A DNA stretch of 64,000 nt. Origin: a bacterium. GTDB lineage: Bacteria; Patescibacteriota; Microgenomatia; Curtissbacterales; GWA2-41-24. The notes below the pieces were generated by a model. That model worked only from the letters and a program-made list of their open reading frames with translations. It did no database searches and was not told the DNA's origin. Location of the stretch: the NCBI GenBank assembly GCA_021813125.1, contig JAKALT010000005.1, forward strand, positions 107-64,106. The letters are read 5' to 3'. Positions 1 to 13,491 of the stretch are shown piece by piece; positions within the stretch are counted from its first letter, which is position 1; the number at the start of each line of letters is the position of its first letter. A program made the translations under genes and the position numbers.

Positions 1-20
1 GATTCAAACTAGAATGTAGC

Positions 21-160
21 TGTTAAAAGTTGGAATATTAATTATGCTGTCCCTTATTTAGACTTTGATTTTAGTTTTGCCGCTCCCAAGCCCAGATACG
101 AGAGAATAATTACCCAAAGAGATGCGTTTGGAAGGATAATACATTCAAAAGCACCATCCT
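21..160 (+). repeat. Copy A of a ~135-bp direct repeat family (conserved core cccaagcccagatacg); 35 bp upstream of the DUF3800-like gene
   Basis: Near-identical (~88%) to 4966..5100 and related to 1697..1855; shared blocks tgttaaaagttggaatattaatt, ctgtccc(t/a)tatttagactttga, tcccaagcccagatacg.gag.ataattac, attcaaaag. Confidence 0.8.
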
Positions 161-194
161 GATTTAGATGTGTTAGGTCTGTTAAAATTATTCC

Positions 195-770
195 ATGTCA
201 GTCAAAAAATTATATTGCTATGTCGATGAGACCGGACAAGACACAGAAGGCAAACTTTTTATCGTTTCAATTGTGGTAACAGGTGAGGAGAGGGATGAAT
301 TATTCAAACTTTGCGAAGAAATCGAAAAAGACAGCGGTAAGGGAAAGTTTAAATGGGGTAAAGCGGAGAAGAATAAAAGGTCCGTTTACTTAAAACGCAT
401 TTTTAAAACTAAGATTTTTAAAAGTAAGTTACGATATTCTGTCTTTCGTAATTTAAGGGATTACGATTTGGCTACAATCGTGGCAGTTTCAAAAGCGGTG
501 CATTTTAAAGAGCCGACGTTAGGGTATACCACTTTGGTGTATGTTGATGGTTTGAGTAAATCAAAGAGACGTGAGTATGGTTCACAGTTGAGAAAATTAG
601 GCATACCCACCAGAAAAGTGCAAGGTGTGACAAAGGACGAAAATAATGCACTTACAAGATTGGCGGATGCGATCGCTGGATTTGTAAGAGACGCGTTATT
701 GAAAGAGCGGAAAGATTTAGATGATCTTTTTAAGAAAGCTGTAGATGAGAAGTATCTAGTTGAAGTGTAG
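195..770 (+). CDS. DUF3800-like protein (N-terminal Y-x-D-E-T/S-G motif, CYVDETGQD)
   Basis: 191-aa ORF; N-terminus resembles the DUF3800 signature (YIDESG-like); no other recognisable domain. Confidence 0.45.
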   Translation: MSVKKLYCYVDETGQDTEGKLFIVSIVVTGEERDELFKLCEEIEKDSGKGKFKWGKAEKNKRSVYLKRIFKTKIFKSKLRYSVFRNLRDYDLATIVAVSKAVHFKEPTLGYTTLVYVDGLSKSKRREYGSQLRKLGIPTRKVQGVTKDENNALTRLADAIAGFVRDALLKERKDLDDLFKKAVDEKYLVEV

Positions 771-928
771 GCATAAAAAAACCACCCACTAGGGGTGGAA
801 GAGCCTACTTTCGCCTGAGGCGAACAGCTTACCGATACGGCCAGTCTTCGGCTCGATTTTGGTTATTTTATATCATAAAAACATTTAAAATGCAAATTAT
901 GGATTTCAAATGTGCCTAAAGCTAAGAT

Positions 929-1678
929 ATGAAACCAGCGTATAATCTTGAAAAAATAAAGTTTGCAACAGATGGCCCAACATTTGAACGAGCTGTGAAT
1001 TTATATGAAAGCGGTAAGGTGACGAAATTCGAAAATAACGGTTTTACTTGTACCGCAATTGTTTTGGGGACTGAGCCGTACGAGGTTTTTGTCTCAAACC
1101 GTAATTATGACCAGGGTAATTGTACTTGTTATTTGGGACAGAGCGATACTTTGTGCAAACACATGGTGGCTGTTGCATTGTATGCTGTCATGGGCGGTAA
1201 CCCATTGACGGATGAGGACAAGAAGCAAGTTCAGGCGCCTTCTTGCAGTGGGAAATTGGGAACATTGACGGGTGAGCAGTTGTCTGAAGCCAAAAAAGCT
1301 ATTACTTCCGATATGCGCTACATAAAACCATATATTGGTCCGTCAAATAAATGGTTTGCTTATCAAGATTCATTACTCGAGGGTTGTAACCGTTTAACCG
1401 CTTTGGTTTCTGATTTACCTGTAAGCGAACAAGCAGCTAAATTGCTTGTTGATTTATTATTGCATCTTGATTGTAAATTGTCCTATGGTGGGGTTGATGA
1501 TTCTGATGGTACTGTTGGCGGTTTTATTGAAGAGACGGTAGAAGTACTTAAAGAGTTTGCCAAATTTGACTCCTCTTGCATAAAGGCTTTCGAAAAACTT
1601 AATAACAGAGAAACTTGTTTCGGTTGGGAAGAACCGCTGTTAAAGTTGATTGAAAATGTTGGAGGCAAAAGTACATAA
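929..1678 (+). CDS. SWIM-type zinc-finger protein
   Basis: C-x-C-x(n)-C-x-H motif: GNCTCYLGQSDTLCKHMVAVALYA; 249 aa; co-oriented 158 bp downstream of the DUF3800-like gene. Confidence 0.55.
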   Translation: MKPAYNLEKIKFATDGPTFERAVNLYESGKVTKFENNGFTCTAIVLGTEPYEVFVSNRNYDQGNCTCYLGQSDTLCKHMVAVALYAVMGGNPLTDEDKKQVQAPSCSGKLGTLTGEQLSEAKKAITSDMRYIKPYIGPSNKWFAYQDSLLEGCNRLTALVSDLPVSEQAAKLLVDLLLHLDCKLSYGGVDDSDGTVGGFIEETVEVLKEFAKFDSSCIKAFEKLNNRETCFGWEEPLLKLIENVGGKST

Positions 1679-1696
1679 GTCAGGTTTTAGCTAGAA

Positions 1697-11151: not shown

Positions 11152-11466
11152 ATGAATAGGCAACTTGAAGACAAGTTAAGATTACTTAAAATTGATCTTT
11201 TAAATATTCTTCATATTTTAGCAGTAAGCGGTTCCATAGCCTTAGAATTGAATGAAATATCCGATTCTACTTCTACCTCTGAATCAGAGCTTAAAGGTAG
11301 TATCAGTACTTTAAGGAGAATGAAAATTGATGACGAAACCTTAATTGTACCTGCTGGAAGAGATGAAGATGGACGGCTTAGATGGAAGATTAATGAAAAA
11401 ATAATTAAAAAAAGCGATTTGGCTAAGTTTTTAGAGGAAGAAATATTAGGAAAAGACAGTAATTGA
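11152..11466 (+). CDS. Hypothetical small protein (104 aa)
   Basis: ORF starting MNRQLEDKLRLLKIDLL...; the ORF-track upstream extension begins with TTG inside the promoter module. Confidence 0.4.
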   Translation: MNRQLEDKLRLLKIDLLNILHILAVSGSIALELNEISDSTSTSESELKGSISTLRRMKIDDETLIVPAGRDEDGRLRWKINEKIIKKSDLAKFLEEEILGKDSN

Positions 11467-11562
11467 GAATTATTAGAAAAACTTATCATAGGTTACTTTT
11501 TAGTGATAGATAAGTAAATAATTTTAGGGTTGTTTTCTTATTAAATAGAAAACGCTAGATAA

Positions 11563-11602
11563 CCCAGCAAATGACATTTAAATGTCTGTGCTGGGTTTTT
11601 TA
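11563..11602 (+). terminator. Rho-independent terminator
   Basis: cccagcaaatgacatttaaatgtctgtgctggg followed by tttttt. Confidence 0.65.
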
Positions 11603-11613
11603 TTGGATTTTTT

Positions 11614-11790
11614 ATGAAAGGTGCTAAGAAACAATTTAGTGGCAACAGAAAGGTAATACCCCCTAGAATTGCGTTTGTTTATGATGAGTCTCTAGGTAAT
11701 GAAGAAATATTACAGGATATGTATAACAGAGTGTTTGAAATAGCCAAACAAAATATTTTAGCTAGGAGAAGGCATTCAAATATATTATAA
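11614..11790 (+). CDS. Hypothetical 58-aa ORF upstream of the serine recombinase
   Basis: atgaaaggtgctaag...; MKGAKKQFSGNRKVIPPRIAFVYDESLGNEEILQDMYNRVFEIAKQNILARRRHSNIL; not in the ORF track (under 60 aa). Confidence 0.25.
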   Translation: MKGAKKQFSGNRKVIPPRIAFVYDESLGNEEILQDMYNRVFEIAKQNILARRRHSNIL

Positions 11791-11844
11791 TAAAATAATA
11801 CTAGAGGTCTACATCTTTAGATTAAACTTCTAGTAAGGGCAAAG

Positions 11845-13491
11845 ATGTTATCTGATTCAATTACTAATGACTTGGTCATATCTTCACAACCTCTAATTCC
11901 CGCTTTATATTGTCGCGTTAGCACAGGTCGTCAGGAGAATGAAAAAACAATTGACAGTCAGATCGATGAAATTATTACTAAAGCTGTTGGTGACGGCACA
12001 GAGATCCGGTCCGATTTAAGGTTTGTTGATAATGGCTGGCCAGGAGAATTATTAGCGCGTCCAGCACTTGACCAGCTTAGGGATGCAGCAACACGAGGAG
12101 AATTCAATGCCTTATATGTTTATGATTTAGGCAGGTTATCGAGATCTTTTTTGGATCAACTAATTCTACTTAAGGAACTTCAAGATCTTGAGATCAAAAT
12201 CATCTCATTACACGACATTAATGCAGAAAATGATGAGCAGGTTTTTGCGAGAAATGTTATGGGTTTATTCCATGATTTCGAGCGGAAAAAAATTGCCGAA
12301 AGAATGAGGCGAGGGAAACTTTTTAAAGCTCGAAGTGGAACGCTGATTAATGGACAATCCTTATACGGGTTTAACTATATTAAAAAAACTGATACTGAAC
12401 CTGCGCGTTGTGAAATTAATAAAGAGGAGGCCAGAGTAATTAGAATGATTTTCGATTGGGTAGGGAAAGAAGGTGCATCAACTAGAGAAGTCATTAAAAG
12501 GCTTTATGATTTAGGAATTTCACCTAGAAAAGGTAAAACTACATTTTGGACCCATGGACCAATCGTAAGACTATTAAGGGAAGAATCTTATGTGTCTGGA
12601 TATATTTATTACAATAAAAGCGAGGCTGTTGTTGCTAAGAAGCCTCTTAAAAACATTAAATATAAAAAAATTAAAAGGGGTAGCCGTAGAATGCGGCCAA
12701 GGGAAGATTGGATACCTTTTCAGGTTCCTAAAATTATTGAAGATAGAAACCTTTTTGATAAAGTCCAAAGGTTAATAGAATATAACAAAAACTTTGCCTC
12801 TAAAAAAAGAAAATACGATTATTTGCTTTCGGGTATAGCTTTTTGTGAATGTGGTGCCAAAAGGGTAGGAGATGGAATCGATAAAGACAATTTTTATTAC
12901 CGATGCGCCGAAAGACTATATAGATTTCCTCTAGAGAAAAAGTGCCATTCAAAGGGTATTAATGCGGCAGTTTTGGATAAAGTATTTTGGAATGAACTAC
13001 TAAAGTTTATAAACAATCCATCATTGATTAGACAGGCTGCAGAAAATTGGCTTAGAGAATCTGGCGATAATGATAAGGATAGGTTAGAAAAGCAGGAGTT
13101 GACTGAATTTATAGCAAGGGTAGACGATGAGGAACAGCGTTATGCCAAAGCTTACGGCGCAGGAGCCTTGGATTTTGAAAAGTTCAAGGAATTGATGAGG
13201 GGCACGAAGAGGAAGAAGGATGGTTACCAGCAACAACTCGATAATCTGAATAATAAAATTGCTAATCAAGGGATAGACAGTATTCAATTAGATGAGGTTG
13301 TGGAAGAAGCAGGGAGGGTTTTTCAGTCTTTAGAGCTGCAAGACAAAAAACAAATTGTTCGGGATATAATAACTAAAGTCATCGTGAAAGGAGGGCTTGA
13401 GGTAGAAGTAAGGGGAAGAATCCCGCTTTTTCCCTCAAATATGGGATATGAACTTAAAGGTTGGAATAGTTGGGTTGCCAAATGTTGGTAA
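11845..13491 (+). CDS. Large serine recombinase (resolvase catalytic domain + recombinase domain + zinc-ribbon/coiled-coil)
   Basis: N-terminal ALYCRVSTGRQENEKTIDSQ (catalytic Ser), YVYDLGRLSRS, zinc-ribbon Cys cluster CECGAKR...YYRCAE...KKCHSKG, C-terminal coiled coil; its 3' end overlaps ychF by 44 bp. Confidence 0.85.
   Translation: MLSDSITNDLVISSQPLIPALYCRVSTGRQENEKTIDSQIDEIITKAVGDGTEIRSDLRFVDNGWPGELLARPALDQLRDAATRGEFNALYVYDLGRLSRSFLDQLILLKELQDLEIKIISLHDINAENDEQVFARNVMGLFHDFERKKIAERMRRGKLFKARSGTLINGQSLYGFNYIKKTDTEPARCEINKEEARVIRMIFDWVGKEGASTREVIKRLYDLGISPRKGKTTFWTHGPIVRLLREESYVSGYIYYNKSEAVVAKKPLKNIKYKKIKRGSRRMRPREDWIPFQVPKIIEDRNLFDKVQRLIEYNKNFASKKRKYDYLLSGIAFCECGAKRVGDGIDKDNFYYRCAERLYRFPLEKKCHSKGINAAVLDKVFWNELLKFINNPSLIRQAAENWLRESGDNDKDRLEKQELTEFIARVDDEEQRYAKAYGAGALDFEKFKELMRGTKRKKDGYQQQLDNLNNKIANQGIDSIQLDEVVEEAGRVFQSLELQDKKQIVRDIITKVIVKGGLEVEVRGRIPLFPSNMGYELKGWNSWVAKCW

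Follow-up and report, generated by a model that had tools for sequence, protein, structure and literature searches.

Large serine recombinases (LSRs) serve as integrases of phages and genomic islands, familiar examples being phiC31, Bxb1, A118/LI, TP901-1 and SPbeta SprA. They are valued for genome engineering: no host factors are needed, and directionality is normally provided by a separate accessory protein. Integration that alters the integrase itself is known from myxophage Mx8, a true phage whose tyrosine integrase (intP/intX) targets tRNA genes; attP lies within the 3' end of int, and integration changes the C-terminus of the integrase to give a prophage form with altered activity. The SSV1-type 'suicidal' integrases of archaeal viruses and plasmids are also tyrosine recombinases and have been called exclusive to Archaea (PMC8371274). 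Tyrosine integrases specific for dusA place islands at the 5' end of this one housekeeping gene in hundreds of genomes, with the integrase gene adjoining (PMC4482086), and a defective pneumococcal prophage carries int immediately upstream of ychF and is reported, in a passage citing Chen et al. 2019, to control ychF expression (PMC8637289). Here we describe a locus in a 64,000-nucleotide stretch of DNA from a patescibacterium (Microgenomatia, Curtissbacterales; GenBank assembly GCA_021813125.1, contig JAKALT010000005.1, positions 107 to 64,106), hereafter the window. We consider it very probable that the window holds an integrative island of ~8.5 kb (4982-13467), inserted by an LSR into codons 5-7 of ychF through an attP site within the LSR gene itself, with two older remnants lying to its left.

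Like the phiC31/Bxb1-type enzymes, the LSR of this island combines a resolvase catalytic domain, a recombinase domain and a zinc ribbon with a long helical insertion, in that order, and the predicted sites follow the same plan, with a short attP built of inverted-repeat half-sites, a protein-coding target gene and the integrase gene at the edge of the element. Unlike in those systems, attP would lie inside the integrase open reading frame (ORF) and the protein would differ between the free and the integrated state, an extra conserved 42-residue C-terminal tail is present, and the element carries a copy of its target's start-codon region, which makes attP and attB nearly identical over ~20 bp in their left arms. 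A C-terminal swap arising from attP in the 3' end of a bacterial integrase gene is shared with Mx8 intP/intX, which differs in being a tyrosine integrase of a phage that uses tRNA genes. As in the SSV1-type systems, the recombination site falls within the integrase gene, and integration partitions the gene into pieces at opposite ends of the element (PMC8371274). This self-splitting arrangement is found at our locus in both its parts, attP within the integrase coding sequence and a partitioned gene; the tyrosine fold and the archaeal host are not, the enzyme being a serine recombinase of a Patescibacteria-type bacterium. Moreover, the SSV1 split separates essential parts (PMC8371274), whereas here the last 42 of 583 residues would be removed and the recognised catalytic and DNA-binding domains would stay together. 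The dusA islands likewise target the 5' end of one conserved gene, but the target is a different one and the dusA integrase gene has not been reported to be split (PMC4482086). In the pneumococcal case attB is intergenic, between a DUF951 gene and ychF, the phylum and the integrase are others, and genes neither overlap nor are split (PMC8637289). A literature search of incomplete coverage yielded no serine recombinase with attP in its own gene and no ychF-targeting islands in bacteria of the Candidate Phyla Radiation (CPR).

The integrase gene and its junction with ychF

The ORF abutting ychF matches the Pfam families Resolvase (PF00239, 8e-27, residues 21-165), Recombinase (PF07508, 1e-13) and Zn_ribbon_recom (PF13408, 1e-7), and by these domain criteria its predicted product belongs to the large serine recombinases. 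The RVSTxxQ catalytic motif, Ser26 included (R24-V25-S26-T27-Q30), is invariant in 29 of 29 LSR homologues, the ORF of the window is intact and keeps every residue that is invariant in the family, and an AlphaFold2 model of the homologue P0045 places long helices at 368-489 between the zinc-ribbon strands. A first-pass annotation, made by a model from the letters of the window without database searches, had described a 548-residue LSR overlapping the start of ychF in another frame, with core genes directly following; the three domains and an overlap of 44 nt bear this out, and ychF is followed by rpsF, ssb and rpsR. Element DNA encodes residues 1-541 of the LSR, and its final stretch, residues 542-548 (SWVAKCW), comes from ychF DNA in the other frame together with the stop codon, a TAA that falls within the Gly-Lys codons of the P-loop. 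YchF itself is complete, with the usual N-terminus MNLKVGIVGLPNVGKS.

To see how general this junction is, we turn to a protein search that returned 513 LSR relatives. The best 120 of the 513 are 48-69% identical to the window LSR and come from Daviesbacteria, Woesebacteria, Shapirobacteria and similar bins; the C-termini of these 120 all read ...LPLFxxNMGYEPxSRDCW..., which is the ychF start (M-N-x-x-x-G-I-V-G-L-P-N-V-G-K) in the other frame. A set of 77 non-redundant LSR genes divides into 61 that adjoin or overlap ychF, 6 that are uninterrupted, 9 truncated at the end of their contig and 1 unclear case. Counted over the 68 with informative downstream DNA (61 abutting ychF, 6 uninterrupted, 1 other), the juxtaposition is far beyond chance, and the cargo upstream of it varies between loci.

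Divergence of the LSR is decoupled from that of its neighbour. Identities of LSR and YchF are weakly correlated (r=0.33): the loci L109 and L132 have YchF proteins that are 97% identical next to LSRs of 48% identity, and in L088 and L101 the LSRs are 97% identical and the YchF proteins 67%. The DNA of L109 and L132 is 98.4% identical over 8.8 kb starting exactly at GGAATTGTCGG (GGAAT, ychF codons 6-7) and is unrelated to the left of that point. Relatives that carry ychF and no LSR upstream of it also exist (L006 and L010). The decoupling, the L109/L132 break and these LSR-free relatives together all but exclude a vertically inherited chromosomal resolvase and map the right-hand junction. Thus the first-pass annotation was right to see in the locus an integrated element whose junction is marked by its own integrase, since the same junction carries variable cargo and near-identical hosts carry different LSRs at the same site, and to place the att site inside the 5' end of ychF. 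A contig scan with YchF returned 80 loci, 0 of 80 with an LSR; these came mainly from unrelated phyla because the peptide patterns of YchF are universal, leaving L006 and L010 as the only useful LSR-free relatives. When the ychF start of L006 was aligned to the window (ATGGGATATGAAC), a frameshifted ancestral start was suspected; the idea was dropped, as other occupied loci have TTGGGA in place of ATGGGA.

The crossover can be placed within GTTGGAAT (13460-13467) on the basis of the core shared by attL and attR in the window, TTAAA(A/G)GTTGGAATA, of the L109/L132 break and of the attR consensus.

The 131-nt repeats and the rebuilt integrase gene

A repeat search found three copies of a 131-nt unit in the window, at 21-151, 1719-1849 and 4966-5096. 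In a short-word search, copies 1 and 3 begin with TTAAAAGTTGGAATA, which matches codons 3-7 of ychF (TTAAAGGTTGGAATA) at 14 of 15 nt, and copy 3 reads TTGCTATAAT-caaaaa-ATG TTA AAA GTT GGA AT up to the boundary, then A TTA ATT. The element TTGCTATAAT also precedes ychF in the LSR-free relative L006. A second ychF 5' fragment, which the first-pass annotation had expected upstream of the window, is therefore present, though inside the window, where it occurs three times, at the starts of the repeats.

The remainder of each repeat is explained by those LSR genes that remain uninterrupted (L107/P0112, L118, the first LSR of L129, L139, P0045, P0031 and P0077), in which the ORF runs on for 42-50 codons. 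The LSRs of L107, L118 and L139 do not meet ychF and continue as ...MGYGTERRD followed directly by THFAVPTFDFYFKIELPKANKERIIMERDNLGRIMESRVP..., an extension that is homologous in DNA and protein to the window repeats. Joining codon 541 of the window LSR (...GGT TGG AAT) to position 4982 produces an in-frame ORF of 583 residues ending NMGYELKGWN-INCAVPYLDFDFSFPVPKPRYARIITERDVFGKIIHSKVPEY and a stop, and joining it to the right arm of attL-1 produces an in-frame ORF of 582 residues. The spacing from MGY to AVP in the rebuilt ORF equals that of the uninterrupted L107/P0112 (580 residues), P0045 (579 residues) and P0031 (573 residues) proteins. The rebuilt 42-residue tail matches six uninterrupted C-termini; for the attL-3 tail against those of P0045 and P0031 the E-values are 1e-14 to 1e-17. 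Because the extension is homologous and the spacing identical, we read the repeats as attL junctions, in which the ychF promoter and first codons are fused to the 3' end of an LSR gene.

Similar junctions recur throughout the family. At least 18 other loci have tail remnants, frequently two or three each, that precede the LSR and share its strand. Among 23 attL flanks from other loci, an ATG stands 12-17 nt before the junction in 19, with a TANAAT box 5-10 nt further upstream of the ATG in 14, and in nearly all attL flanks, at least 20 of them from other loci, the phase of the GGRAY boundary agrees with the tail frame, as it must for the LSR frame. As a separate observation, the displaced ychF promoters of L103, L110, L113, L123, L125, L132 and L167 follow the pattern GTAAAATA-N4-5-C-ATG, with the -10 box 7-9 nt from the start codon; a -10 box so near the start suggests that ychF mRNA is leaderless or near-leaderless in these bacteria.

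The same alignments define the predicted recombination sites. Uninterrupted genes and rebuilt sites have TGGGA 21 nt to the left of the GGRAY boundary and TCCCA 13 nt to its right, so that attP takes the form of an imperfect inverted repeat, TGGGA-N34-TCCCA, centred on the GG of the ychF codon for Gly6, in agreement with the L109/L132 break and the shared attL/attR core. All four site types (attP, attB, attL and attR) could be reconstructed from sequence alone. Over its inner ~20 bp the P arm copies the ychF start, and attR resembles attB over the typical length of an attB. In this reconstruction the 3' part of the LSR gene contains attP, and the enzyme would exchange its C-terminus on integration; since attP falls within the LSR coding sequence, the overlap between LSR and ychF can be understood as the scar of a split integrase gene.

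The detached tail appears to be constrained at the protein level. Frames are open in 32 of 33 tail copies, the alignment yields the conserved peptide xVPxFDFxFxFxLPKPRKERIIxERDxLGRIxxSKVP, and the ratio of the median proportion of nonsynonymous differences (pN) to that of synonymous differences (pS) is 0.50, with synonymous sites near-saturated. Between window copies 1 and 3 the values of pN/pS are 0.11/0.40, and the attL-3 tail is an intact ORF under apparent purifying selection. A tail-profile search against 1.84 billion representatives was dominated by the LSR body, as the profile kept 579 columns, and says nothing on how far the tail is spread.

A model for integration

Sequence comparison shows the structural outcome of integration: the junctions, an LSR frame that can be rebuilt without a break, a pattern that recurs through the family and the exchange of one element for another within a host. 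On this basis we propose the following mechanism. The free element would express the 583-residue LSR and recombine attP, within its own gene, with attB at the ychF start (start and P-loop codons), the LSR probably catalysing the reaction and the crossover probably falling at the GG of Gly6. The left arm of attP would double as a mimic of the ychF start (ATG and five codons) and the right arm would encode the last 42 residues of the LSR. Integration would keep ychF intact, with a start codon that is supplied by the element and embedded in the LSR frame, while the integrated LSR would lose its tail and become the 548-residue form, ending in seven residues taken from ychF in the other frame. The original ychF promoter, start and first codons would be moved to the far end of the island (attL) and fused to the orphan LSR tail, where the displaced promoter may drive cargo. 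Excision would restore the ychF promoter and start, the full-length LSR and the left-end arrangement. Because its inner ~20 bp equal the ychF start, attR probably still acts as attB, and tandem arrays could form for that reason. The tail swap may, in addition, change the activity of the recombinase and so provide a built-in record or switch of the integrated state; as a functional switch we regard it as possible, at somewhat less than an even chance.

Arrays at the ychF site

The element proper is ~8.5 kb long (4982-13467) and carries the LSR, so the 13.5 kb that the first-pass annotation had taken for one island is integrated DNA but not a single element. The DNA to the left of 4982 appears to consist of two older segments without LSR, at about 37-1698 and 1699-4981, which we read as insertions that lost their LSR; alternatively, they may be satellites mobilised in trans. 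Since the window covers nearly all of a 64,234-nt contig, the region is truncated on its left by the contig border. In 15 loci the distance from the nearest tail to the LSR end is 6.3-11.2 kb. In L129 an upstream LSR is fused to the tail of an incoming element, 8 kb before a second LSR and ychF, an arrangement that corresponds to the predicted product of tandem integration, and L118 is similar.

Several further loci show variations on this layout. L006 contains two LSR-tail remnants (180-275 and 1002-1103) upstream of ychF (2614) and no LSR; between the second remnant and the promoter-type ychF start lie three small cargo genes, judged by eye to encode a DsrE-like, a DUF302-like and a SHOCT-type membrane protein, and the locus looks like an array remaining after its LSR-bearing member was lost or excised. 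In L252 an uninterrupted LSR of 603 residues (P0077, 10001-11812) carries 25 additional residues where the ychF-mimic segment (NMVYEPISRD) meets the tail. The genes that follow it, in place of ychF, encode an ABC-F ATPase, a nucleotidyltransferase and a DHH phosphoesterase, and it marks either the next element of an array or a copy that was relocated. The LSR of L124 (4472-6148) is the only one whose junction is neither ychF nor tail, with a ychF-like frame reading MNLKIGMNGFLET and a stop, and its junction is best described as a degenerate or secondary target. Finally, two contigs from another sample, obtained with two assemblers (L004 and L005; ERZ27237554 and Logan SRR13241953), both start exactly at window position 13089, inside the coiled-coil region of the LSR, and are identical to the window from there onward. 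These contigs point to a co-occurring strain with an LSR that differs upstream of 13089, either because LSR genes are mosaic or because another element occupies the site.

Cargo and neighbouring genes

Over the island region the G+C content is 0.33-0.40, against 0.41-0.47 in the neighbouring core; the features of the region are collected in Table 1. The DUF3800, SWIM, zeta, TIR, XRE and DUF4352 assignments of the first-pass annotation, and its mention of repeats, agree with Pfam and the repeat search. Its HNH-like endonuclease has to be withdrawn, as ORFs 10435-11022 and 11116-11466 have no Pfam match even at E<=5.

Table 1. Predicted features of the ychF-proximal part of the window, with positions counted from its first nucleotide
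Feature	Position	Strand	Description and basis
attL-1, left arm	10-36	+	Degenerate displaced ychF 5' end: TAGAAT box, mutated start, TTAAAAGTTGGAAT; repeat alignment, flanks
attL-1, right arm	37-162	+	Detached LSR 3' end, 41 codons and stop, INYAVPYLDFDFSFAAPKPRYERIITQRDAFGRIIHSKAPS; P' half-site, TCCC at +14; tblastn/alignment to uninterrupted C-termini
Segment 1 cargo	195-1678	+	DUF3800 protein (195-770), SWIM-finger protein (929-1678); Pfam
attL-2	1681-1863	+	Degenerate ychF-5' remnant (1681-1698) fused to LSR tail remnant (from 1699); internal 12-codon duplication
Segment 2 cargo	2000-4808	+	605-residue protein without assigned family, zeta-toxin-family kinase (3943-4644), 55-residue ORF
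attL-3, left (B) arm	4949-4981	+	TTGCTATAAT, extended -10 (TATAAT 4953-4958), ATG 4965, TTAAAAGTTGGAAT; displaced ychF promoter and codons M-L-K-V-G-I
attL-3, right (P') arm	4982-5110	+	Last 42 codons and stop of the resident LSR, INCAVPYLDFDFSFPVPKPRYARIITERDVFGKIIHSKVPEY; left end of the LSR-bearing element
Element cargo	5117-9413	-	TIR protein (5117-6154), 995-residue HEAT-repeat protein (6151-9138), XRE regulator (9207-9413)
Further element genes	9591-11790	+	DUF4352 lipoprotein-like (9591-10163), Cys-rich 195 residues (10435-11022), 116 residues (11116-11466), 58 residues (11614-11790)
LSR (truncated, integrated form)	11845-13491	+	548 residues; Pfam domains, ORF, homologues
attR, P arm	13437-13467	+	AAATATGGGAT (TGGGA at 13442-13446), then element-supplied ychF start ATGAACTTAAAGGTTGGAAT; attR consensus
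ychF (target gene, intact)	13448-14527	+	MMR_HSR1 and YchF-GTPase_C; first ~5 codons from element, remainder host; B' arm is the P-loop coding region

The cargo has, by its predicted products, a defence flavour: a ThsB-like TIR protein with a HEAT partner, a zeta toxin and a SWIM protein whose N-terminus resembles the PADLOC candidate PDC-S62. In PADLOC the TIR protein matches ThsB and PDC-S66 and the XRE protein matches control proteins; no complete known defence system was found among the island proteins, the zeta toxin, DUF3800, 605-residue and 995-residue proteins being unmatched. The TIR gene overlaps the 995-residue HEAT-repeat gene by 4 nt in the same orientation, and the two are possibly a defence pair for which no system has been described. 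A 27-nt direct repeat containing TTGACA (ACGAsTTGACACGAT...TATTTGTG) stands at 10413-10439 and 11111-11137, before ORFs 10435-11022 and 11116-11466, and is probably a promoter or operator common to both. The second of these ORFs has a homologue in L107 (1057-1383) and may for this reason be a backbone gene of the element. The 58-residue ORF occupies the place taken in most relatives by an HTH_17 gene, to which it is unrelated. Beyond ychF, the 3' end of rpsF (14920-14973) carries a series of repeats with a 9-nt period (AAAGGTATC-like units), by which S6 gains a low-complexity extension at its C-terminus and reaches 166 residues, compared with ~93 in L086 and L088.

Discussion

A number of observations weigh against our reading of the locus as a mobile, self-splitting island. 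More than 55 relatives (loci L086-L170) carry a gene of the HTH_17 (excisionase) family, ~55 residues long and 48-80% identical among themselves, directly upstream of the LSR; this gene is missing in the window and in its closest relative L251, which have other small ORFs there, and the window copy may consequently be unable to excise. No excised circle and no empty site of the same species were found, the window YchF and LSR being singletons in the protein collection. Uninterrupted LSRs with enough context sit in chromosomal arrays and not in free elements, and circularity tests on the contigs bearing uninterrupted LSRs were negative, one such contig ending in sequencing adapter. The reconstructed attB has little dyad symmetry. 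The tail has no Pfam family, and the AlphaFold2 model gives it three short strands at low confidence (predicted local distance difference test, pLDDT, 41-75). A consensus promoter scan flagged neither the displaced -10 box nor a ychF promoter inside the LSR. Furthermore, the internal attL junctions of the window have promoter-type left flanks and not flanks of the LSR-3' type, which simple sequential integration does not predict; they require later loss of the older LSR genes, or satellites without LSR.

These points bear unequally on the alternatives. The view that the LSR is a vertically inherited chromosomal resolvase or invertase that merely overlaps ychF, beside an ordinary variable region, might draw on how widespread the LSR-ychF arrangement is in Microgenomates-type genomes and on the missing empty site for this species, but it is largely refuted by the decoupled divergence of LSR and YchF, by different LSRs at the identical nucleotide position in 98%-identical hosts, by the LSR-free relatives and by the displaced ychF 5' ends that mark the other end of the insert; we give it next to no weight, and the conserved chromosomal resolvase that would have undone the first-pass annotation was not what we found. 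Just as hard to credit is the proposal that the 131-nt repeats are an unrelated repeat (a miniature inverted-repeat transposable element, a leader or a small RNA) that happened to insert after some LSR genes. The repeats are indeed intergenic, copies differ by an indel, and of the four copies seen, those of the window and a single one in L006, three precede a gene on the + strand by 45-150 nt. However, an Rfam scan of 1-16000 gave no match for them, the ychF 5' fragment that opens each of them is phased to the LSR reading frame, and the protein is conserved across loci despite saturated synonymous sites; moreover, no LSR stop codon occurs before the P arm ends, so the ORF of the free form must continue into the repeat sequence.

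A prophage remnant or an integrative and conjugative element, both offered by the first-pass annotation, would account for the match of the LSR to a PHROG integrase family (9e-75) and for the PHROG matches of the DUF4352 and XRE proteins. Either is very improbable compared with a small non-conjugative island, the element being too small and too gene-poor: Pfam and PHROGs scans of the island proteins found no virion, packaging or lysis genes (capsid, tail, terminase) and no replication genes in the 13.5 kb, Pfam found no relaxase, coupling protein or type IV secretion genes among the ORFs of 1-13491, the elements of this family are small, and among the 2.9 million viral contigs of IMG/VR the LSR has no close relative (<=29% identity). 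The alternative to be taken most seriously, which we nonetheless regard as unlikely, is a fossil: the island inserted as described, but this copy is now immobile and kept for the ychF start and possibly for transcription, with its LSR decaying or co-opted. The absent HTH_17 gene, the two adjoining segments that are already without LSR and the failure to detect circular or empty forms fit such a history, whereas an LSR ORF with all invariant residues, the open attL-3 tail under apparent purifying selection and turnover at the level of the family, by which such elements are seen to move, speak against it.

More tentatively, and with a probability that we put below one half, the locus may represent the first serine-recombinase and bacterial counterpart of the archaeal 'suicidal' integrases: islands of CPR bacteria whose enzyme has two forms (583 residues with a small C-terminal beta-domain, and 548 residues), with the swap acting as a switch of directionality or immunity, ychF made dependent on the element and cargo placed under the displaced promoter. 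A self-split serine integrase contradicts the confinement of gene-splitting integrases to Archaea (PMC8371274). If the model holds, integration that edits the C-terminus of its own enzyme would be a new principle for one-way or state-recording integration, and the family would offer dozens of orthogonal integrases that share a conserved, predictable attB at the P-loop start of ychF. For the bacteria themselves, it would define a route by which the tiny and little-understood genomes of Patescibacteria acquire defence-type cargo and stack it at one site.

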